From: Gammaproteobacteria bacterium
Lineage (GTDB): Bacteria; Pseudomonadota; Gammaproteobacteria; JAKEHO01
NCBI GenBank assembly: GCA_027296625.1
Contig: JAPUIX010000183.1
Span: 61,329 to 125,328, forward strand
Direction: 5' to 3'
DNA length: 64,000 nt
Under the pieces are notes generated by a model that worked only from the letters and a program-made list of their open reading frames with translations, ran no database searches and was not told where the DNA came from. The position numbers and the translations under genes were made by a program. The first letter of the stretch is position 1; the number at the start of each line of letters is the position of its first letter. Positions 5,949 to 64,000 of the stretch are shown here, in pieces.

Positions 5949-6584
5949 TTGATCATGAATGCCACTGTGATGCGCATTGCCTTGATCCTCGTTTTGGTAA
6001 CGGGCCTGTCCCCATCCCCTCCAGCGCACGCAAGGATCAAGTGCTGGACAAACAAAGATGACGTAAGGGAATGTGGTAATGTTGTTCCGCCAGAGTATTC
6101 ACAAAAAGGACATGAAGAACTCAGCGATCAGGGGATTGTCATTGACAGAAAAGAAAGGGCCAAAACTCCAGAGGAGCTGGAAGAGGAGCGACGGCTCGCG
6201 GCTATCCAGGCAGAGGAAGACCGTAAGGCCAGGAAGAAAGAGATCGCCGATCGGGTCTTGTTAGATACATTTGCGAGCGAGGACGATCTTGTTCTGGCCC
6301 AGGATGGCAAACTTGCTGCAATCGAACAAACCATTCATGTCACAGAAAGCCGCATTAAGAAGCTACAAAAGAGCCTAAATGAGATTATGAGCATGGCGGC
6401 CGAAATGGAACGTCGCGGCAAGCCGCCGGCCGATGGAACCCAAAACGAGATCGATGTGGTGCGTGCACAGATCGCAGAGAACCGCGCCTACATTAAGACC
6501 TTGCATAAGGAACAGGATGCGGTGCGCAACGCCTTTGAGTCTGATCTGACGCGCTTCAAAGAGTTAAAGGCCGCAGGAAGATAA
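5949..6584 (+). CDS. secreted coiled-coil protein (DUF4124-like N-terminal module)
   Basis: Signal peptide (ALILVLVTGLSPSPPAHA), then a W..D..G..PPEY module, then about 150 aa of charged heptad-like sequence (EELEEERRLAAIQAEEDRKARKK). GC is lower than in neighbouring genes. Confidence 0.5.
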   Translation: MIMNATVMRIALILVLVTGLSPSPPAHARIKCWTNKDDVRECGNVVPPEYSQKGHEELSDQGIVIDRKERAKTPEELEEERRLAAIQAEEDRKARKKEIADRVLLDTFASEDDLVLAQDGKLAAIEQTIHVTESRIKKLQKSLNEIMSMAAEMERRGKPPADGTQNEIDVVRAQIAENRAYIKTLHKEQDAVRNAFESDLTRFKELKAAGR

Positions 6585-6586
6585 GC

Positions 6587-7180
6587 TTAGCCAAACAAGC
6601 CCTGCGAGAGCGTCGCCCACTGCTCCTCCCAGAAACTGGTCGGAGAGGTATGAAAGCCGCTCTGTACATACTGCAGCATTTTCCCTTCCGCGTGCGCCAC
6701 GAGCAGGTTCGCTGTGACGGTCGGCGATCCCTTCGGCTGCAAGCCCGGGCTTAGAGTGCTTTCACGCAAGATCTGTTTCAATTGCATCTCAAAGCGATCG
6801 AAAAATTGTACGACACGCGTCCGAAGGCGCTCATTCTCGCCGACTAGCGCATCGCCGACAAGGATGCGTGTGATACCGGGATTTCGTTCAGAAAATCCCA
6901 AGAGCAACTTCAAGATACCCTGACAGCGCTTCACGACATCAGACTCATCCGACAGTATACGGTTTGTGAGACCAAATACTGAATCCTCCGCGAACCCGAT
7001 CAGATCCTCAAACATCTTCGCCTTGCTAGCAAAGTGCCGATAAAGTGCTGCCTCAGACACGCCGACGGCTGTGGCAAGCCTAGCCGTGGTGATTCGCGTA
7101 CCGGGCTGGTTCTCAAGCTCGCGGGCCAACGCTTCCAAAATCTGCTGCCGCCGACTCGGTTTCGCCTTAGCATCTTTCAT
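6587..7180 (-). CDS. slmA: nucleoid occlusion factor SlmA (TetR family)
   Basis: 197-aa TetR-fold ORF. Its N-terminal HTH (RITTARLATAVGVSEAALYRHFASKAKMF) and LLLGFSERNPGITRIL segment match SlmA closely. It lies downstream of argB/dut/coaBC as in Pseudomonas. Confidence 0.8.
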   Translation of the reverse strand: MKDAKAKPSRRQQILEALARELENQPGTRITTARLATAVGVSEAALYRHFASKAKMFEDLIGFAEDSVFGLTNRILSDESDVVKRCQGILKLLLGFSERNPGITRILVGDALVGENERLRTRVVQFFDRFEMQLKQILRESTLSPGLQPKGSPTVTANLLVAHAEGKMLQYVQSGFHTSPTSFWEEQWATLSQGLFG

Positions 7181-45670: not shown

Positions 45671-48217
<2,547 letters not shown>

Positions 48218-48337
48218 CTACGACGGCCACCACGTTGTTGCCTCAATCTGGAGCCGCTCGCCCCGATGCGCCATTGGACCTTGCAAGGGACACCGTTGGA
48301 AACGGGGATACCGACGATGGCGACGGCCAGGACCCCG

Positions 48338-49438
48338 CTATAAACGCATGGGCATCACGACATATTGGCAGCTTGTGGAATCCTCCGGCAGGATGAGACA
48401 GCTGCTGTTGGGATCCGATACGGACAGACGTACCTTAGCGGTTTTGATCGCCGCAAGCGCATCCAGCAAATACGACACGTTAAAGCCAATTTCCATCTCC
48501 TCTCCGCCGTACTCCACCTCCATCTCCTCCTCCGCTTCTTCCTGCTCGGGATTATGCGCCAAGGCCCGCATGCTATTTGCCTGCAACAGCAACCGGATAC
48601 CACGGTACTTCTCATTGGATAAGATGGAGGCGCGTGTCAGGCCTTGACGCAAGACCGTCCGATCCCCCATGAGCACCTCATCCTGTAGCGCGGGTAACAC
48701 CCGCTGATAATCAGGGAAACGCCCGTCAATAAGCTTGGCCGTATAGCGTAGCTCAGCAAAGGTAATCTGAATATGGTTGCGTCCCACTGCCACAGCCACC
48801 TCCGTGTCACGGTCGTCTAACAAGCGCGCGAGTTCCAGTACGCCCTTGCGCGGGACGATGACCTGGAGCGGCTCCCCCACATCCACTCCAACGGGCGTAT
48901 CGCACAGCGCCAACCGGTGGCCATCCGTCGCCACGCCCCGGACTTGTCCGCTGCTTATCTCTAGCATCAGCCCATTGAGAAAATAACGAACGTCTTGATG
49001 CGCCATCGCAAAATGGGTGCTGCTGATGAGTTCCTTGAGGACATTCTGCGCAATCGTAAAGTGCACAATGGGCTCCTGAACCTCGGTTGCGGGAAATTCT
49101 TCCGCCGGCAAGGTAGCCAGCGTAAATCGACTCTTCCCTGATTGGATCACAGCGCGCCCCGTCACCACTTCAAATGCCACGGTTGCCTCATCCGGCAGCG
49201 CTCGACAGATATCGAGTAACTTGCGGGCTGGAACCGTAATCTCCCCTGGTGACTCAACCGGATGCTCAACCGTAGCAACCAACTCCACCTCCATATCGGT
49301 CGCTGTTAGCGATAGCGCATTATCTTGAGCAACCAACAACAGATTAGACAGAATGGGTAATGTCTGGCGACGTTCTACGACCCCATTTACCGTCTGCACT
49401 GGCGCGAATAGTTTTTCCCTTGGGATCGTAAATTTCAT
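48338..49438 (-). CDS. dnaN: DNA polymerase III beta sliding clamp
   Basis: Start assigned to MKFTIPREKLF (canonical DnaN N-terminus); the ORF-track start 49510 is an upstream in-frame Met inside AT-rich DNA. The C-terminus RLSVSDP...MPMRL is typical. Confidence 0.9.
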   Translation of the reverse strand: MKFTIPREKLFAPVQTVNGVVERRQTLPILSNLLLVAQDNALSLTATDMEVELVATVEHPVESPGEITVPARKLLDICRALPDEATVAFEVVTGRAVIQSGKSRFTLATLPAEEFPATEVQEPIVHFTIAQNVLKELISSTHFAMAHQDVRYFLNGLMLEISSGQVRGVATDGHRLALCDTPVGVDVGEPLQVIVPRKGVLELARLLDDRDTEVAVAVGRNHIQITFAELRYTAKLIDGRFPDYQRVLPALQDEVLMGDRTVLRQGLTRASILSNEKYRGIRLLLQANSMRALAHNPEQEEAEEEMEVEYGGEEMEIGFNVSYLLDALAAIKTAKVRLSVSDPNSSCLILPEDSTSCQYVVMPMRL

Positions 49439-49647
49439 TATTACTAGATCTATTTTATATAAGTTGAATATACTGTTGTTAGTTGCATTAATAATAAAGA
49501 TTACATACAAATTATCTTATAAAACAAATACATGACCTGTGGAAGATCTCGTGTGTTTCCCTGTGATCTGGGCCAAGAATCCTGTGGAAAAGTGGACAAT
49601 ACGCTAACCTTTTTATAAATAAAGTATTTATCCACAGAAAATCCACG
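49439..49647. other. candidate replication origin (DnaA-box cluster plus AT-rich unwinding element) in the dnaA-dnaN spacer
   Basis: The spacer is about 70% AT within a ~58% GC genome. It carries perfect TTATCCACA at 49628..49636 and TGTGGAAAA (1 mismatch, opposite orientation) at 49584..49592. TGTGGAAGA (2 mismatches) lies at 49548..49556. GATC sites are at 49447, 49555 and 49565. A long A/T tract (49452..49540) adjoins the dnaN start. Confidence 0.5.
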
Positions 49648-50994
49648 TTAAGCTGTGAGTATTCTACCCAAATTAACGTAGTCTTCATTGATGCGTTGTT
49701 CTGTGGTTCTCAGATCAGCAATCTTTCGGCAGGCATGCAGGACGGTTGTATGGTCTCGTCCCCCAAAGGCGTCCCCAATCTCGGGCAAACTGTGCGAGGT
49801 GAGTTCCTTGGAGAGCGCCATGGCCACCTGACGCGGACGGGCCACTGAACGGCTGCGGCGTTTCGACAAAAGCTCGGCAACTCGGATCTTGTAATACTCC
49901 GCCACGGTCTTCTGAATATTTTCAATCGTGACCTGCTTTTCTTGCAGGACCAACAGATCCCGGAGGGCCTCGTTGGCAAACTCCAATGTGAAGGGCTTGC
50001 CCGTTAGCCGAGCATTGGCGACGACTCTGTTTAATGCACCTTCAAGCTCGCGGACGTTAGAGCGAAAGCGTTTCGCGATGAAAAAGGCCACTTCATCAGG
50101 CAGCGCGATATGGGCCTGGCTGGCCTTGCTCTTCAAGATGGCCACCCGTGTTTCCAGCTCCGGCGGCTCGATTGCCACAGTCAATCCCCATCCCAAGCGG
50201 GATTTCAATCGCTCTTCAAGGCCCGATACCTCTTTAGGGTATCGATCGCAGGTCAAAATGATCTGATGTTGACCCTCGAGTAGTGCGTTAAAGGTATGAA
50301 AAAACTCTTCCTGCGAGCGTTCCTTGCCCGCGAAAAATTGAATGTCATCAATCAACAAGGCATCAACGGACCGGTAATAGCGCTTGAACTTATTCATCGC
50401 ATTGTGCTGAAGCGCCCTGACCATGTCTGCAACGAAGCGTTCCGAGTGTAAGTACGTGACCGTAGCACTTCCGTTACGCTGCATGATCACACTGCCGATG
50501 GCGTGCATGAGATGTGTCTTGCCTAAACCGACCCCACCATAGATGAATAATGGGTTATAGGCGTCCCCAGGATTTTCAGCAACTTGGAGCGAGGCAGCTC
50601 GCGCGAGCTGATTGGACTTTCCTTCGACAAAATTTTCAAAGGTGAAATGACGATTCAGGCCTGTGACGTTTCGTCGTTCATTACGCCTTTTGAGCTCAGT
50701 CGTTGTCGTGAGCGAGGGGTCGGCCTGATATACTCGTGGCGCTTTCGGTGTCCGGCTGCCGACCTCGATGCGTACGTTATAACCGCCGCCGTCTTGTGTC
50801 TGGCCGAGAAGCTCTTTGATTCGTGAAAAATATTGTTCATTGACCCAGTCTAAAACGAAGCGATTGGGAGCCAATAGGCGTAAAACGCCACCGTCGTCAA
50901 TGGCGTGGAGTGGACGAATCCAGGTATTAAATTGTTGTGGCGAGAGTTCTCCTTCCAAGCGTTCGAGACATTGCTGCCACAATGAGACCCCCAC
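49648..50994 (-). CDS. dnaA: chromosomal replication initiator protein DnaA
   Basis: N-terminus [20 protein letters not shown]+ Walker [11 protein letters not shown], and the C-terminal DnaA-box-binding domain. Confidence 0.95.
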
Positions 50995-51059
50995 AATTTA
51001 ACCCCCTGGATTGAAAGGACGCCGGAAGAGTGGGAGAAGTTTATACCCGATGCGGCCAC

Positions 51060-51068
51060 TTATCCACA
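51060..51068 (+). promoter_or_regulatory. consensus DnaA box TTATCCACA in the rpmH-dnaA divergent promoter region
   Basis: Perfect 9-mer. A TTGACA hexamer at 51101..51106 is a candidate rpmH -35 element. Confidence 0.5.
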
Positions 51069-51181
51069 CCCAGTTTTCGATTTTTCTCACAGCCGGAATG
51101 TTGACAATTGATTTTAATGACGATTAACATTCACTGCTTTTATTTCTGGTTATTTTCATTCGACCATATCAGTCTTTAGCC

Positions 51182-51316
51182 ATGAAGCGGACCTTCCAGC
51201 CGAGCAGAATCAAGCGAAAACGTCGACATGGTTTTCGTGCAAGAATGAGCACGAAAGCTGGCCGACTGGTCCTCAAAGCGCGCAGAGCTAAGGGACGGAA
51301 GAGGCTTAGCGCGTAG
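51182..51316 (+). CDS. rpmH: 50S ribosomal protein L34
   Basis: Hand-translated [44 protein letters not shown] (44 aa); a canonical L34. It is not in the ORF track. Confidence 0.9.
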
Positions 51317-51917: not shown

Positions 51918-53553
51918 GTTAATTCTCGTTGTTTCCTTAGGACTTGTCTCGCTGTTGATCTGGCAGGCTTGGCAGCAAGAGTATGGAATAGCTCCCTCGG
52001 GACGCGAAGCGCCAGTCGCGAGCCCGGAGGCGGTCGAAGGACCAGCCGATGTGCCAACCGTGGTTTCAGAGGAGCAACCGGAGAGTCCTGAAGCGCTCCA
52101 GGAAACCGTTCAAAGTCCACTTGAAAGTGCTCAGCGTATTTATGTTCACACCGACGTTCTGGACGTAGAGATCGATACCCGAGGGGGGGATATCCGCACC
52201 GCAAAACTCTTGAAGTACCCCGTCTCGGTGAAACAGCCTGATGAACCGTTCCAATTGTTGAACGATACGCCCCCAATGATCTTTCTCGTGCAGGGCGGGT
52301 TTCGTACCCATGATCCAGCTCCCACCCATCACGCTGTCTATCAGGTGGCTGAGACAGAGTATCGTCTTGAAGAAGGCAGCGACGAGATACGTATCCCTCT
52401 GACCTGGCATTCCGAAAATGGCCTGTCGGTTACAAAGGTGTATACCTTTCAGCGTGGCAGTTACTTGATTGATATGTCCTATGAGGTGGATAACCGTACA
52501 CAGAAACCATGGAGAGGCCACCTCTACGGCCAGCTGCAACGCAATGAAAGCGATAATGGTAATTCAAGATTCATCTACACATACACAGGCGCGGCCATCT
52601 CAAGTCCAGACAACCGCTACGAAAAGATCAAATTTAAGGCAATGGAGGAGCAGAACTTAAGTCGTAATATCAAAGATGGCTGGATTGCCATGTTGCAACA
52701 TTATTTTGTCGCCGCCCTGATACCAGATCCTGGTAGAGAATACCATTATTACACTTTGGCACTTGGGGACGGTCGCTACATTGCGGGATTGTATGGTCCT
52801 GAACAAGCGATTGCACCCAACGGGCGAGGAACTTTTCAGCTTAGGGTATATGTAGGGCCTAAGATTCAGAAAACGCTTGCGGCGATCGCTCCCGATTTGG
52901 ATTTGACGGTCGACTATGGTTGGTTGTGGTTTATTGGTCAGCTGTTGTTTTGGTTATTGGAAAAGCTGTTTGTAATTACTGGCAACTGGGGTTGGGCGAT
53001 TGTGCTCGTTACGATCGTCATAAAAGCACTATTTTTCCCGCTTTCCGCGGCAAGTTATCGTTCCATGGCAAATATGCGACGGGTCCAACCACGGATGATG
53101 GCGGTAAGGGAACGCTTTGGGAATGACCGAGCGCGCATGAATCAGGCGATGATGGAATTGTATAAGGAGGAAAAGATCAATCCACTCGGCGGATGTTTGC
53201 CAATCGTCGTGCAGATTCCAGTGTTTATTGCACTATATTGGGTGTTACTCGAAAGTGTGGAGCTGCGCCAGGCTGACTTCATGTTATGGATTCATGACTT
53301 ATCAACGCGTGATCCGTACTTTGTGTTGCCGCTCTTGATGGGTGTCAGCATGTTTTTGCAACAGAAGCTTAATCCTGCTCCGATCGATCCTGTGCAAGCG
53401 AAAGTAATGCAGTTGATGCCAGTCATCTTCACGTTTTTTTTCGCGTTTTTTCCCGCCGGATTGGTCCTTTACTGGCTGGTTAATAACATTCTATCGATCG
53501 CCCAGCAGTGGCTGATTACACGGAGGATTGCGCAAGTGGGCCAACATGCTTAG
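51904..53553 (+). CDS. yidC: membrane protein insertase YidC
   Basis: Start assigned to [14 protein letters not shown] (TM1). It has a large periplasmic domain and a conserved C-terminal five-TM core. Confidence 0.9.
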
Positions 53554-53584
53554 CTGCACACGATCACCGATCGCCTCGTCAAAC

Positions 53585-54937
53585 ATGGCCCTAGCTCCTG
53601 ACACGATTGCGGCAGTGGCGACGCCACCGGGCCGAGGCGGGATTGGGATTGTACGGGTCTCTGGGCCGCTGGTTGCAACGATTGCACGCTCGCTCGTTGG
53701 GTGCGAAATCGTACCTCGGCAGGCCGCGTTCTGTGCATTTAAGGATGGTCAGGGGGAGGTGATCGACCGTGGCATCGCGCTGTTCTTCCCCGGGCCAAAA
53801 TCCTTTACTGGGGAAGACACCCTGGAGGTGCAGGGACATGGGGGTCCTGTGGTGATGGATATGTTGCTGCAGCGGACGCTGGAGCTCGGTGCCCGAGTGG
53901 CCCGTCCAGGTGAGTTCTCGGAACGGGCGTTCCTCAATGGTAAAGTGGATTTGACGCAAGCCGAAGCGATCGCTGATCTCATTGACAGTGCCTCTCAGCA
54001 GGCTGCTCGATGTGCAATGCGTTCACTTGAAGGTGGATTTTCAAGTAAGACGAAAGAGTTAGTTAATTTGTTGGTGGACTTGCGCACGTATATCGAAGGC
54101 GCATTGGACTTTCCTGAAGAAGAGATCGATTTTCTTGAAGATTCGCAGATCCAAAAACGTTTGCGTTCATTTATAAGCCGGGCCGATCGCCTCTACAGGG
54201 AGGCCGAGCAGGGTTGCCTACTTCGGGAAGGGATGCGGATTGCCATCATCGGCCGACCAAACGTGGGCAAGTCAAGCTTGTTAAATCGTCTTGCCGATCG
54301 GGACTCTGCCATCGTCACCCCAGTGCCTGGCACAACGCGGGACATCATCTCCGAGGAAATTCTGATTGACGGATTGCCGATCCGTGTCGCGGATACGGCA
54401 GGATTGCGCGTGGCGAGAGACGTGGTGGAAGAGGAAGGAATACGGCGCACCTGGCAAGCCGTGGAGCGCGCCGATCGTATTCTGTTTGTCGTGCAATCAG
54501 GGAACGGGATAGAAGGGGAAGATCAGAAACTCCTTCATCGCTTCCAGAAAAGTGGCGGCGTTACAATCGTGCACAACAAGATCGATCTGACAGAAGCACA
54601 ACCCGGGGTCGAGGAACGCAATCAAGTTTTAAATGTCTATGTCTCGGCGAAAACCGGCGAAGGCATCGACTTATTACGGGGGCACCTCAAGGCCTGTGTG
54701 GGCTACAAGCCTGTGAGCGAAGGGGGTTTTATGGCGCGGCGGCGCCATTTAGAGGCGCTGGGCCGAGCGCGGGCGCTTGTTCAAAGGGGTCTCGATCAGC
54801 TAACGGCACATCGTGCAGGCGAGCTGCTCGCGGAAGATCTCCGTCTTGCACAGCAGGCGTTTGGGGAAATCACCGGGGAGGTGACGTCGGACGATCTGCT
54901 GGGGGCGATCTTTTCCCGCTTTTGCGTTGGCAAGTAG
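53585..54937 (+). CDS. mnmE: tRNA modification GTPase MnmE
   Basis: Start assigned to MALAPDTIAAVATPPG. G-domain motifs GRPNVGKSS and DTAGLR, and the C-terminal CVGK tetrapeptide. Confidence 0.9.
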   Translation: MALAPDTIAAVATPPGRGGIGIVRVSGPLVATIARSLVGCEIVPRQAAFCAFKDGQGEVIDRGIALFFPGPKSFTGEDTLEVQGHGGPVVMDMLLQRTLELGARVARPGEFSERAFLNGKVDLTQAEAIADLIDSASQQAARCAMRSLEGGFSSKTKELVNLLVDLRTYIEGALDFPEEEIDFLEDSQIQKRLRSFISRADRLYREAEQGCLLREGMRIAIIGRPNVGKSSLLNRLADRDSAIVTPVPGTTRDIISEEILIDGLPIRVADTAGLRVARDVVEEEGIRRTWQAVERADRILFVVQSGNGIEGEDQKLLHRFQKSGGVTIVHNKIDLTEAQPGVEERNQVLNVYVSAKTGEGIDLLRGHLKACVGYKPVSEGGFMARRRHLEALGRARALVQRGLDQLTAHRAGELLAEDLRLAQQAFGEITGEVTSDDLLGAIFSRFCVGK

Positions 54938-59821: not shown

Positions 59822-61975
59822 ATGAGTATCAAAAAAGTCTTGCTCGTCACTGCACTTGTTGTTTTGGTATTTAGTGTTTTTGCCTTCGACCTCGGGCAGT
59901 ATTTCAATCTCGAATACTTCAAGTCGAAACAGGTGGCAGTCGACACCTACTACCAGGTCCAACCCGTCAAAACGGCATTCATCTTTTTCTGCGTTTACAT
60001 CGCGGTGACCGGCCTGTCACTACCGGGCGCAGCATTAATGACCCTCGTCGGAGGGGCGATATTTGGTTTGCTGTGGGGGACGGTCATCGTTTCATTTGCC
60101 AGTACCATTGGCGCGACTGTGGCATTCCTTGTGTCGCGTTTCTTGCTGCGTGATGTGGTGCAGAATAAATTTGGCAATCGTTTGAAGACCGTCAACAAGG
60201 AGATCCAGAAAGACGGCGCTTTTTATCTGTTTGCCCTCCGGCTCGTGCCAGCATTTCCGTTTTTTATTATTAATCTGGTTATGGGGCTCACTCCCATGCG
60301 CACGCTTACGTTTTTCATCGTCAGCCAAGCGGGCATGTTGGCTGGCACCATTGTCTACGTGAATGCGGGTACGCAAATTGCGAAAATTGAAACGCTGGTG
60401 GGCGTCCTGTCCCCGGAGCTTGTTGGCTCGTTTGTTTTGTTAGGCATCTTCCCACTCATCGCAAAAAAAACAGTCGAAATTATAAGAGCACGCAGAGTAT
60501 TGCGGCGCTATCAGAAGCCGAAAGCATTCGGTCGCAACATGGTTGTGATCGGCGCAGGGTCGGCGGGTCTTGTGGCCGCCTACATTGGGGCTGCGGTCAA
60601 GGCCAAGGTGACGCTTGTTGAAAAGGACAAAATGGGGGGGGAATGTCTGTATACCGGTTGCGTTCCCTCGAAGGCGCTGATCCGCTCGGCTAAATTCATC
60701 GCCCAAGCGAAGAGGGCCGAGCAGTTTGGATTTAAGGCGGTGAGTGCTGAGTTCGAATTTGCGCGGGTGATGGAGCGTGTTCAGCGGGTCATCAAGACCA
60801 TAGAGCCCCACGACTCAGTGGAGCGCTACACCGAGTTGGGTGTTGAATGTATCCACGGCGAGGCCAAGATCACCTCGCCCTATACGGTGGAAGTGAATGG
60901 CGAGACATTAACGACGCGCAGTATCGTCATTGCCACCGGTGGACAGCCGATTGTGCCACCCATCCCGGGGATCCAGGATGTCGGGTTCCTCACCTCGGAT
61001 ACGGTGTGGGGGATCCGTGAATTGCCGAAACGGCTCGTGGTATTAGGAGGCGGATCGGTTGGTGCTGAATTGACACAAGCCTTTGCGCGTTTCGGCAGCC
61101 AAGTCACGCAAGTTGAGATGGCACCGCGGATCTTGATGCGGGAAGATCCGGAATTCTCGGGGCTGATCGCGGAATGCTTCCGTGGTGAGGGGATCGATGT
61201 GCGTGTTGATTGTCGGGCCAAGGAATGTCGAATTGAAAGCGGCCAGAAAGTGCTGGTGTGTGAATACCAAGGCAAGGATGTCAGTATCGAATTTGACGAA
61301 TTGCTGGTTGCTGTTGGCCGCACAGCAAGTACCCGCGGCTTTGGGCTCGAGGATCTCGGGATCGGGAGCGGTCCTGACGGCACTGTGGACGTGAATGAGT
61401 ATTTGCAAACCATCTATCCGAATATCTATGCGTGTGGTGATGTGGCGGGCCCCTATCAATTTACCCACGTGGCCGCCCATCAGGCGTGGTACGCCGCCAT
61501 CAATGCGTTATTTGGCGGCATCAAGAAATTCAGAGTGAACTACTCGGCGATCCCTTGGGCGACGTTTACGGATCCGGAGATTGCGCGCGTTGGCCTCAAT
61601 GAAGAGGAAGCAAAGGAAAAAGCAATTAATTATGAGGTGAGTACCTACGGCATCGACGACCTGGACCGCGCCATTGCGGATGAAGAGCCGCGCGGTTTGA
61701 TCAAGGTGCTGACCGTGCCGAAAAAGGACAAGATCTTGGGGGTTACGATCGCTTGTGATCATGCGGGTGAGGTGATTGCTGAATATGTGGCGGCCATGCG
61801 TCACGGGATCGGCCTAAACAAGATCCTGGGCACGATCCACGTTTATCCAACCATGGCCGAGGCCAACAAGTATGTGGCTGGCGAGTGGCGACGTGCCCAT
61901 GCGCCGCAGTGTCTGCTGCGTTGGATTGCACGCTACCATGCCTGGCGGCGAAGTGAGTCATTTGCCAGATCTTGA
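59822..61975 (+). CDS. fusion protein: N-terminal DedA/TVP38 (SNARE-associated) membrane domain plus C-terminal class-I FAD/NAD(P)H pyridine-nucleotide-disulfide oxidoreductase
   Basis: Residues 1..~215 are a multi-TM DedA-like module (GLSLPGAALMTLVGGAIFGLLWG). Residues ~240..717 have an FAD GxGxxG (VVIGAGSAGLVAA), the redox-active disulfide GGECLYTGCVPSK and an NAD(P) GxGxxG (VVLGGGSVGAEL). The C-terminal interface His-Glu (HVYPTMAE) is present; there is no C-terminal Cys pair and no NmerA domain. GC is lowered. Confidence 0.8.
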   Translation: MSIKKVLLVTALVVLVFSVFAFDLGQYFNLEYFKSKQVAVDTYYQVQPVKTAFIFFCVYIAVTGLSLPGAALMTLVGGAIFGLLWGTVIVSFASTIGATVAFLVSRFLLRDVVQNKFGNRLKTVNKEIQKDGAFYLFALRLVPAFPFFIINLVMGLTPMRTLTFFIVSQAGMLAGTIVYVNAGTQIAKIETLVGVLSPELVGSFVLLGIFPLIAKKTVEIIRARRVLRRYQKPKAFGRNMVVIGAGSAGLVAAYIGAAVKAKVTLVEKDKMGGECLYTGCVPSKALIRSAKFIAQAKRAEQFGFKAVSAEFEFARVMERVQRVIKTIEPHDSVERYTELGVECIHGEAKITSPYTVEVNGETLTTRSIVIATGGQPIVPPIPGIQDVGFLTSDTVWGIRELPKRLVVLGGGSVGAELTQAFARFGSQVTQVEMAPRILMREDPEFSGLIAECFRGEGIDVRVDCRAKECRIESGQKVLVCEYQGKDVSIEFDELLVAVGRTASTRGFGLEDLGIGSGPDGTVDVNEYLQTIYPNIYACGDVAGPYQFTHVAAHQAWYAAINALFGGIKKFRVNYSAIPWATFTDPEIARVGLNEEEAKEKAINYEVSTYGIDDLDRAIADEEPRGLIKVLTVPKKDKILGVTIACDHAGEVIAEYVAAMRHGIGLNKILGTIHVYPTMAEANKYVAGEWRRAHAPQCLLRWIARYHAWRRSESFARS

Positions 61976-62792: not shown

Positions 62793-63962
62793 TCATCGCC
62801 TTCTGAGCTGTGCGGCTATGTCGCGGAGAAGGGTCTTGACGGCGAGCTCGGCCCGCTTTCTCACGGCCTCAGCTTTTTCCTTGATGCGCTGCATCTGTGC
62901 TTTTTGTCGTTCCAGGAGCTCGGGCGGAAATTGAATGGCTTCCATTTTGTCATGCTCACGTCGCCACTCCTGTACCTCTCGTTCTAACTGCTTGCGCAAT
63001 TTTTCCTGGTATTTTTGTTGCCTTAATATTTGCTCCTTGCTTGCCTTCTTGGCCGCTTGAGCCTCCTTTTGGATCTGTCTGGCTGCTTCGAGTTGTTTGC
63101 CGGCCTGACTAACCTCGGCTTCCCTCGCATCCATCTCGGCGTGTAGGCGCTTTTCAGCGGCGCGTTGGCGTACGGGATCAGCGGAAAGGCTTTTTCCGCG
63201 TACCCGTGCTGCTTGCTTTTCTGCCTCACGCCATGCGGTCTCTGCCTCTTCTTTAGCGCGCCGTGCCTTTTCTAAAGCATCCTGTATCCTCTGTGCCTCC
63301 AATTTTTGTCTTTCGCGTTCAGCCTGAAGTTTGGCTTTCTCTTCAGCGCGCCTTTGCTCAAGCGCTTCCTTATATTCAGCAATGATCTTTTCAGATTCTT
63401 CTGCTGCGGCTCGGCGTGCGGCTTCGGTGGCATGTTTCTCTTGTCGCGCCTGTTCTAACTCCTGCGTGTGTCGCGCGAACGCGGCCTCAAGCTTTCGGCG
63501 TTCTTCAGTGATATTGATCTTGATCTCCTCGCGAAGCCTTTTTTCAATTGTGAGTTGTTCAAGGTGTTTTCTTTCCAGCTCCTCCCTAATGCTCTGGATC
63601 TTGCCTAGCTCCTCTGCGTTGTGCGCATAGGTAGCCTCTAACTGTGATTTTTCTTCACGTAGCTTTTGCTCCGCTTCTTGCTTAAGCTGTTGTATCTTTT
63701 CTGCTTCTTCCTTGTGCCTTTTGGCGGCATCGGCTTCTGCCTTCCGTTTGGCCTCCTCTATCCCTAATCTAAGGCGCTGTGCTTCCTTGAGGGCTTGGCT
63801 TGCGTGGACGGCCTCTGATTCAATTTTGTTCCGTTCTGAACGAAGTTGGTCGGCTGCACTTTTTTGCGCCATCTGTTTGGCCACTTCGGCTTCGGATTTC
63901 AGTCTCAGGGCTTCTTCAAGTTGCATGGTGGCCTTCGCGAGGTCTGCCTTCAGAGCGGACAC
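62793..63962 (-). CDS. E/K/R/Q/A-rich coiled-coil protein (probably 5'-truncated by the window end)
   Basis: 389 aa of nearly uninterrupted charged heptad-like repeats (AEAAKKAAEEAEKQAA-like). No globular domain was recognised. Confidence 0.5.
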   Translation of the reverse strand: MSALKADLAKATMQLEEALRLKSEAEVAKQMAQKSAADQLRSERNKIESEAVHASQALKEAQRLRLGIEEAKRKAEADAAKRHKEEAEKIQQLKQEAEQKLREEKSQLEATYAHNAEELGKIQSIREELERKHLEQLTIEKRLREEIKINITEERRKLEAAFARHTQELEQARQEKHATEAARRAAAEESEKIIAEYKEALEQRRAEEKAKLQAERERQKLEAQRIQDALEKARRAKEEAETAWREAEKQAARVRGKSLSADPVRQRAAEKRLHAEMDAREAEVSQAGKQLEAARQIQKEAQAAKKASKEQILRQQKYQEKLRKQLEREVQEWRREHDKMEAIQFPPELLERQKAQMQRIKEKAEAVRKRAELAVKTLLRDIAAQLRRR

Positions 63963-64000
63963 GCGAATGTCTGCCTCAAGGGTATCGGGCGTAGGGTTTT

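Follow-up and report, generated by a model that had tools for sequence, protein, structure and literature searches.

Where does replication of a gammaproteobacterial chromosome begin when dnaA is flanked by two noncoding spacers, each of which carries sites resembling those bound by its product (DnaA boxes)? The question is raised by the dnaA locus of a gammaproteobacterial metagenome-assembled genome (MAG; assembly GCA_027296625.1), of which we analysed 64,000 nucleotides of contig JAPUIX010000183.1 (positions 61,329 to 125,328), hereafter the window. On one side of the gene, a 209-bp spacer separates the dnaA stop codon from the dnaN start codon; on the other, a 187-bp spacer (50995..51181) lies between dnaA and rpmH. 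An earlier note on this DNA had placed the chromosomal replication origin (oriC) in the dnaA–dnaN spacer rather than upstream of dnaA. Our analysis supports this placement: with a probability of roughly 80%, the dnaA–dnaN spacer is predicted to be the chromosomal oriC, of the single-part dnaA–dnaN type. The GC-skew switch, a melting model, the orientation of the boxes, homology of layout with related loci and a separate explanation for the rpmH–dnaA spacer all point the same way.

Nearly all 1-kb bins from 1 to 50 kb of the window have negative GC skew, and the skew is positive from 51 to 62 kb. The cumulative G − C curve is flat between 49250 and 51250, with its lowest point at 50538, and the best two-segment breakpoint falls at 50200. 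An overlapping contig (L165) adds 8 kb of net positive skew to the right arm, bringing the net positive stretch to the right of the switch to ~21 kb in all. Over the minus-strand genes at 55–57 kb the skew is still positive; thus, the switch is related to replication and is not only an effect of gene orientation. The GC-skew switch puts the origin at the dnaA locus. The cumulative-skew check proposed in the earlier note, run here on ~72 kb, therefore gave the expected minimum at dnaA, but it did not discriminate between the two spacers, and skew was rejected as a means of choosing between them because the plateau covers both.

The DISCRIMINATING between the two spacers comes from the melting model, the polarity of the boxes, layout criteria, promoter matches and the position of the upstream box. 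The dnaA–dnaN spacer is 69% AT, compared with 44% for the window, and ranks first among all stretches of 100, 209 and 300 bp, so that its earlier description as the most AT-rich part of the window is correct. An AT-rich tract of ~100 bp adjoins the dnaN ATG (83% AT over 49439–49530), and 49431–49530 are the least stable 100 bp in the window, with a nearest-neighbour free energy of −102 against a mean of −148 and a standard deviation of 7.8 (~5.9 standard deviations). Melting was calculated with Benham's model of stress-induced duplex destabilisation, which we implemented for a single bubble, at superhelical densities of −0.05 to −0.06 and in 5-kb and 10-kb domains. The sole region to open in this model is 49430–49533, with a probability >0.95 across 49460–49515, whereas the rpmH–dnaA spacer opens with a probability of ~2e-6. 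Composition, duplex stability and predicted melting thus agree with the previous suggestion that a ~90-bp A/T tract beside the dnaN start could act as the DNA unwinding element (DUE).

Next to this tract lie four DnaA boxes with at most two mismatches and a fifth, box-like site with three, all within 110 bp. No other 209-bp stretch of the window is as dense in such boxes, four being present where 0.43 are expected, and their number is significant relative to shuffles of the spacer (P = 0.026) and to shuffles of the 117-bp part outside the AT tract (P = 0.002). The cluster is convincing because of its position, not on its own. Two boxes in opposite orientation and one weaker third box had been listed before; the perfect and the 1-mismatch box are indeed present, but the single weaker third was a miscount, as there are two boxes with two mismatches. 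Read in the dnaA-to-dnaN direction, all three forward boxes point into the AT tract, which is the polarity that E. coli R1 and B. subtilis boxes 6 and 7 show toward their unwinding regions (Pelliciari et al. 2021, Table S1). The box at 49538 agrees with TGTGNAWAA at eight of nine positions and lies ~22 bp from the edge of the strongly opening core (~49515); it shares the extended motif CCTGTGGAA (repeat D2) with the box at 49583.

The order of these elements was compared with published criteria for origin prediction (10.1101/2025.08.05.668638, section 2.2.12). On the plus strand, outward-transcribed dnaN, the unwinding element, ~22 bp, TGTGGAAGA, the box array and dnaA follow one another, as laid down in criteria 1–4 of that scheme. 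The unwinding element that the scheme calls for corresponds to 49430–49533 in the single-bubble model, the box cluster to the array described above, and the R1-type box (a reverse TGTGNAWAA about two helical turns downstream of the unwinding element) to the box at 49538–46, which has two mismatches against TTATCCACA. Transcription on the unwinding-element side runs outward (dnaN, minus strand, from 49438 down to 48338), and a skew switch coincides with the locus over the ~72 kb covered.

To what extent this layout is shared was addressed by measuring both spacers in 115 gammaproteobacterial dnaA loci (L numbers below), with boxes counted at no more than one mismatch. The loci separate cleanly into two spacer-length classes. 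The long class (56 loci; dnaA–dnaN of at least 150 bp) has medians of 222 bp and two boxes for dnaA–dnaN and of 212 bp and one box for rpmH–dnaA; the short class (58 loci; dnaA–dnaN below 100 bp) has medians of 33 bp and no box, and of 566 bp and three boxes, respectively. Xanthomonadales/Lysobacterales, Chromatiaceae, Sedimenticolaceae and 19 of the 29 relatives at ≥66% DnaA identity fall into the long class, as does the window with its 209 and 187 bp, while Pseudomonas, Halomonadaceae, Shewanella, Vibrio and enterics form the short one. The earlier note had set the arrangement apart from those of E. coli and Pseudomonas, but it is not an unusual one for Gammaproteobacteria, being present in 56 of the 115 sampled loci. 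The predicted origin of the window is of an ordinary layout, known from Xanthomonas and common to about half of the sampled related genomes.

The likeness extends to the order of the boxes. Of 58 long spacers with at least two good boxes, 52 have a reverse box first and 54 a forward box last, and the window follows the same order (reverse, forward, forward, forward). When the window was aligned with 12 relatives in MAFFT, the boxes of its reverse and forward pairs, i.e., its first four boxes, fell opposite boxes of the relatives, and the 49591 box is the counterpart of the first box in their conserved forward pair. At the dnaA end, where the window has a perfect and a weak box, relatives usually have a tandem reverse pair, TGTGGATAAnnTGTGGAnAA. 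The dnaN-side half of the relatives' spacers holds an IHF-like YAANNNNTTGATW and a last forward box, which reads GTTATCCACAGG; beyond ~12 GC-rich nt come a triplet repeat (either TAATAATAACAACAG or CTACTAC) and a final AT-rich stretch. This IHF/box/GC-rich/triplet module is an observation of the present analysis and not a published definition.

Two details of this module deserve mention. The IHF consensus YAANNNNTTGATW stands in reverse orientation upstream of the last forward box in, e.g., L004 (5178–5364), L019, L063 and L139; in L004 the conserved G of the site is 21 nt from the box, which matches the 21-bp R1–IHF spacing described for other gammaproteobacterial origins. In the Xanthomonadales-type loci L066, L072, L074, L075, L076 and L080, a 3-nt repeat of CTA, CCA or CAA follows the last forward box and the GC-rich spacer (e.g., GCTACCACCACCACC and CCTACAACAACCAC), which reads 3'-GAT/GGT/GTT-5' on the trio strand, with a middle base that is often not A. 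Such repeats could be the "deviant DnaA-trios" suspected by Pelliciari et al. 2021 (PMC8287927), whose program chose other sites for Xanthomonas and Stenotrophomonas.

Among origins described before, that of Xanthomonas campestris is the closest. It shares the gene order rnpA-rpmH-dnaA-dnaN-gyrB, a short rpmH–dnaA spacer, and an origin in a dnaA–dnaN region of 200–280 bp with about three consensus-like boxes and AT clusters. In strain X. campestris pv. campestris 17, a dnaA–dnaN region of 273 bp is reportedly sufficient on its own as the minimal autonomously replicating oriC. The Xanthomonas oriC has three conserved DnaA boxes and is located between dnaA and dnaN according to PMC8453159 (citing da Silva 2002, Yen 2002 and Qian 2005). 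The Xanthomonadales spacers L066 and L071–L080 present the same succession as the window, i.e., reverse box, forward box, forward box and AT-rich tract. We find in the window the long boxed dnaA–dnaN spacer (209 bp; ~180–280 bp for the type), the short rpmH–dnaA spacer (187 bp; zero or one box for the type) and the box order of the Xanthomonas type, and we do not find there the IHF/triplet module of the Xanthomonas-type relatives. Compared with X. campestris, the window's spacer is shorter (209 bp vs. the reported 273 bp) and its AT tract much longer and purer, recF is missing between dnaN and gyrB, and DnaA is only 55–60% identical; the module of last box, GC-rich spacer and CTA/CCA triplets that Xanthomonadales spacers show is also lacking.

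A second parallel is Thioalkalivibrio sulfidiphilus HL-EbGr7, in which oriC was predicted in a 251-bp dnaA–dnaN spacer, with an rpmH–dnaA spacer of 193 bp (10.1101/2025.08.05.668638). Both loci have outward dnaN, an unwinding element, reverse-oriented R1-type boxes and then dnaA, and the two are likened by layout, both origins being predictions; in each, a short rpmH–dnaA spacer (193 vs. 187 bp) goes with a somewhat longer dnaA–dnaN spacer (251 vs. 209 bp). By experiment, an origin at dnaA–dnaN is known in B. subtilis, C. difficile, C. jejuni and S. coelicolor. B. subtilis, with incA/B and incC, has in common with the window an unwinding element between dnaA and dnaN, boxes that point into it and a formal box-spacer-(NAN)n succession. 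However, incA/B holds several boxes where the window has one upstream box, the trios of the window are without statistical support, and the two phyla are far apart. The oriC1 of Pseudomonas (rpmH–dnaA) and the oriC of E. coli (mnmG–mioC) share the DnaA-box consensus and an R1-type box facing the unwinding element, but their spacers are the opposite of those of the window: dnaA–dnaN measures 1–90 bp and carries no boxes, and rpmH–dnaA exceeds 400 bp. Relative to an E. coli-type oriC, the window's spacer is also without meaningful GATC enrichment (three sites vs. 1.6 expected) and without an IHF site, and mnmG is not found in the 72 kb seen.

The upstream spacer appears to serve another purpose. 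It contains exactly one perfect box and one 2-mismatch box (51099–51107), and its divergent sigma-70-like pair represents the only promoter-like matches between 48000 and 51400. Of 25 relatives examined, 10 carry a reverse perfect box at a distance of 56–74 nt from the start of dnaA. About 13 nt past this box toward dnaA, ~45–55 nt upstream of the dnaA start, a TATAGACT-like element is conserved (in the window TATAAACT, 51038–51045), which is probably the −10 region of dnaA; the DnaA box would then lie over the −35 position. Because of its conserved distance from the dnaA start, between promoter-like elements, the box at 51060–68 is probably a site of dnaA autoregulation, the role that had been suggested for the single perfect upstream box and that its position in relatives and the divergent promoter matches now favour. 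The divergent promoter-like matches and the conserved box fill the rpmH–dnaA spacer, so that little room is left there for an origin. We suggest that this spacer lies outside the origin and holds the putative divergent promoters of rpmH and dnaA along with one autoregulatory DnaA box.

Three other accounts of the two spacers have to be weighed. That the rpmH–dnaA spacer is itself the origin, in the manner of Pseudomonas oriC1, with the dnaA–dnaN spacer incidental, seems to us barely credible. The spacer does sit on the skew plateau and has a perfect box, and over 100 bp its duplex stability is the third lowest in the window, but an oriC1 would be expected to have more than 400 bp with several boxes and an unwinding element; the 187 bp found here compare with a median of 566 bp in the short dnaA–dnaN class, the one perfect box with four to five in the Pseudomonas loci L034, L046 and L059, the predicted opening is minimal, as given above, and the two divergent promoter matches occupy most of the sequence. 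An origin in two parts is somewhat easier to imagine, although still quite improbable: as in B. subtilis or H. pylori, the downstream boxes and DUE would loop with the rpmH–dnaA box or boxes, and both spacers would be needed. The perfect box at 51060–68, 1.4 kb away, recurs in many relatives, a check for such a second part is called for by the rules of 10.1101/2025.08.05.668638 when a predicted oriC is shorter than ~250 bp, and in B. subtilis a distal box acts through looping, in both orientations and over variable distances (PMC6669920). However, the upstream spacer has no array and thus no second multi-box cluster across dnaA (one perfect and one 2-mismatch box; zero or one box in relatives), and the placing of its perfect box, constant relative to the dnaA start and flanked by promoter-like elements, points to autoregulation. 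Six of the 25 related short rpmH–dnaA spacers have no box with ≤1 mismatch at this place (L093, L094, L100, L101 and L005; in L117 the box is 152 nt from dnaA), and further long-class loci are without an rpmH–dnaA box (L032, L067, L068, L072, L074, L075, L077, L103 and L104). With so many relatives lacking it, the upstream box is dispensable in the family. The minimal oriC of Xanthomonas is moreover reported to be the dnaA–dnaN region alone. The earlier analogy with the bipartite Bacillus/Helicobacter origins is therefore unnecessary, since the upstream spacer has no box array, and the closest counterparts are the single-part oriC of X. campestris and the prediction for T. sulfidiphilus.

It is also possible, though we give it little weight, that the dnaA–dnaN spacer is only regulatory, comprising a dnaN promoter or leader and boxes that tune dnaN and the dnaA operon, with the origin elsewhere, for example at mnmG as in E. 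coli, Vibrio and Pseudomonas oriC2. dnaN needs a promoter or a leader, the AT tract extends to its start codon, a weak promoter-like pair seen by eye (TCCACA-16 nt-TATAAG) lies over the 49538 box, and the box cluster is not significant window-wide. Against this, the skew switches sign at the dnaA locus and keeps it over 50 kb to the left and ~21 kb to the right, and genomes whose origin is known or predicted to be elsewhere have dnaA–dnaN spacers of 1–90 bp that lack boxes. The window shares the long-spacer class with the Xanthomonadales, the order of Xanthomonas, whose origin is placed between dnaA and dnaN by the source cited above.

Several observations nevertheless weigh against a dnaA–dnaN origin. 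The AT tract has to contain the promoter or leader of dnaN as well, which alone would favour AT richness. Thirty of 60 whole-window shuffles also produce four boxes somewhere, so the cluster lacks window-wide significance. GC skew cannot separate spacers that are 1.35 kb apart on one plateau, and it covers ~72 kb of the replicon; mnmG is outside the 72 kb seen, and a second or the real origin could lie there. The window has neither the IHF-like site of the relatives, ~21 nt from the last box, nor their module of box, 12-nt GC-rich spacer and triplet repeat. Its last box has two mismatches and is ~30 bp nearer to dnaA than in the relatives, so the homology on the unwinding side is loose. The window's triplet block with TAACAACAG is placed halfway along the AT tract and is separated from the box by ~40 nt of AT-rich sequence, in contrast to the ~12 GC-rich nt of the relatives. 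Finally, both DnaA-trio candidates are indistinguishable from base composition.

The trio candidates and other minor motifs of the spacer were examined individually. In the basal unwinding system as defined by Pelliciari et al. 2021 (PMC8287927), a box with no more than two mismatches is followed by a spacer of 0–16 nt and at least three NAN trios, all read on the strand that shows the box as TGTGGATAA. The 49538 box formally conforms (AGAAGGTGT, CCAGTA and, 3'-to-5', CAT AAA CAA AAT), but so do 28% of AT-tract shuffles (P = 0.28); the periodicity of the alternative block at 49473–97 is likewise not significant (P = 0.18). GATC occurs at 49447, 49545 and 49565. The three sites counted before are thus real, but as evidence for an origin they do not exceed chance (1.6 expected from 7.8 per kb in the window). 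A Dam/SeqA logic was rejected, with GATC unenriched in this spacer and depleted in the homologous spacers of relatives. The hexamer AGATCT, called an "ATP-DnaA box" in PMC10225481, is locally enriched, with two copies in the spacer where 16 copies in 64 kb would give ~0.05 per 209 bp (our own estimate); across the relatives it is neither conserved nor enriched, and the near relatives L001, L002 and L028 have one copy in the corresponding half. No perfect IHF site is present in the spacer, and its two 1-mismatch matches are at chance level. A promoter and terminator scan returned no consensus matches in the dnaA–dnaN spacer; the pair overlapping the 49538 box was noticed by eye and is not in the scan output. 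No Shine-Dalgarno-like purine run precedes the dnaN ATG at 49438, as 49439–49460 reads ...AAAATAGATCTAGTAATA-ATG and the AT tract reaches the start codon; in several relatives AGGTGGA or AAGGA occupies this position. The coordinates of all features are collected in the table below.

Table. Features of the dnaA locus and its spacers, in window coordinates (+, plus strand; −, minus strand; forward and reverse refer to the dnaA-to-dnaN direction)
Feature	Coordinates	Strand	Remarks
dnaA–dnaN spacer	49439..49647		209 bp, dnaN start codon to dnaA stop codon; predicted single-part oriC (AT content, box density, layout homology)
Predicted DNA unwinding element	49430..49533		core 49460–49515; 83% AT, duplex stability, melting model
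Perfect DnaA box TTATCCACA	49628..49636	+	reverse (TGTGGATAA in dnaA-to-dnaN direction); 11 bp from dnaA stop codon
Weak 3-mismatch DnaA-box-like site AAATCCACG	49639..49647	+	reverse (CGTGGATTT in dnaA-to-dnaN direction); tandem with perfect box
2-mismatch DnaA box TTGTCCACT	49591..49599	−	forward; one-base overlap with 49583–49591 box, same orientation
1-mismatch DnaA box TTTTCCACA	49583..49591	−	TGTGGAAAA on plus strand; forward, toward dnaN and AT tract
2-mismatch DnaA box TCTTCCACA	49538..49546	−	TGTGGAAGA on plus strand; forward, nearest to unwinding element
AGATCT hexamers	49446..49451 and 49544–49549		bracket the AT tract exactly; second overlaps 49538 box
Candidate DnaA-trio run	49520..49531	+	CAT AAA CAA AAT, 3'-to-5' from box; 6 nt from 49538 box
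Alternative trio-like block TTATTATTAATGCAACTAACAACAG	49473..49497	−	A at every third base in 7 of 8 triplets; contains TAACAACAG, recurrent in relatives
E. coli-style 13-mer match GATCTATTTTAT(A)	49447..49458	+	dnaN end of AT tract; one of two GATCTNTTNWWW matches in window; weak significance
Perfect DnaA box, rpmH–dnaA spacer	51060..51068	+	66 nt upstream of dnaA start
Divergent sigma-70-like promoter matches	51080..51130		rpmH (+): TTGACA 51101, TAACAT; dnaA (−): TTGTCA 51107, AAAAAT
dnaA	49648..50994	−	448 aa, GTG start; Pfam DnaA_N, Bac_DnaA, Bac_DnaA_C on identical called gene
dnaN	48338..49438	−	366 aa by translation; Pfam DNA_pol3_beta domains 1–3; transcribed away from spacer
gyrB	~45671–48088	−	neighbour of dnaN
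rpmH	51182..51316	+	rnpA, yidD and yidC also on + strand
mnmE	53528–54937	+

How closely the locus can be followed in other genomes is limited by its relatives. The nearest DnaA proteins in the genome and metagenome collections searched are at most ~71% identical over the full length (Gammaproteobacteria MAGs and an Alkalilimnicola MAG), and fine-scale footprinting is therefore impossible. An identical DnaN is encoded on contigs of MAG GCA_036447815.1 and of several Logan assemblies. The spacer shows no differences among four contigs with this DnaN (L081–L084), which have no more than five mismatches to the window where they are in register (L083 is out of register beyond locus position 6800), and as the spacer is invariant, no selection signal can be read from it.

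The surroundings of the locus offered some further observations. recF is absent between dnaN and gyrB, the canonical order being dnaA-dnaN-recF-gyrB, and mnmG was found neither in the window nor in the 8 kb beyond it. The 249-bp dnaN–gyrB spacer (48089–48337) contains a perfect 14-bp inverted repeat (GTTCCACGTGAAAC at 48144–48157 and GTTTCACGTGGAAC at 48174–48187, with a 16-nt loop), each arm of which includes a CACGTG palindrome; the stability of its RNA fold is unexceptional (z = −1.8). No Rfam family was found in the dnaA–dnaN spacer, and the only Rfam match, a sub-threshold one to AsdA (an antisense RNA of dnaA mRNA) on the plus strand inside dnaA (50463–50541; 24 bits vs. a gathering threshold of 52, E = 0.085), is probably due to chance. 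Farther away, 59822–61975 (+) encodes a 717-aa protein in which an N-terminal VTT/DedA membrane domain is fused to a pyridine nucleotide-disulphide oxidoreductase with its dimerisation domain. AT skew is −0.34 to −0.52 at 63001–64000 and at 6001–8000 of L165, over the minus-strand gene of an 804-aa cNMP-binding and rhodanese protein, a composition that is unusual for coding DNA.

If the dnaA–dnaN spacer is indeed the origin, its arrangement suggests how initiation would proceed. DnaA would bind the perfect reverse box by the dnaA stop codon (49628–36) and its weak partner (49639–47), as well as the tandem forward pair (49583–99) and the forward box beside the unwinding element (49538–46). From the forward boxes, ATP-DnaA may oligomerise onto one strand of the AT tract, possibly via the DnaA-trio-like triplets at 49520–31; by analogy with E. 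coli and B. subtilis, the captured strand would be the plus strand of the window. The oligomer would stabilise melting of ~49460–49515, after which the helicase would be loaded and bidirectional replication would follow. Binding, unwinding and firing are thus what we infer from the anatomy, the predicted melting, the skew switch and the conserved layout.

The departures from the relatives could also be read as a remodelling of the family origin in this lineage, given the displaced 2-mismatch box, the two AGATCT hexamers that bracket a long, pure AT tract, a dnaN that has no Shine-Dalgarno sequence and the missing conserved module. We regard such remodelling as unlikely; if true, it would couple the melting of the origin physically to the expression of dnaN, and unwinding would not depend on IHF. 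Less likely still is an origin that functions in two parts by virtue of the single upstream box.

Knowledge of replication initiation is left unchanged by the predicted origin, and its practical value is modest: it fixes the origin and the orientation of the replichores for an uncultured gammaproteobacterial MAG whose DnaA is no more than ~71% identical to those in the collections searched. For Gammaproteobacteria, the two spacer lengths provide a rule, by which a dnaA–dnaN spacer of at least 150 bp combined with an rpmH–dnaA spacer of ~200 bp would indicate a Xanthomonas-type origin, and the reverse lengths an origin in the rpmH–dnaA spacer or elsewhere.

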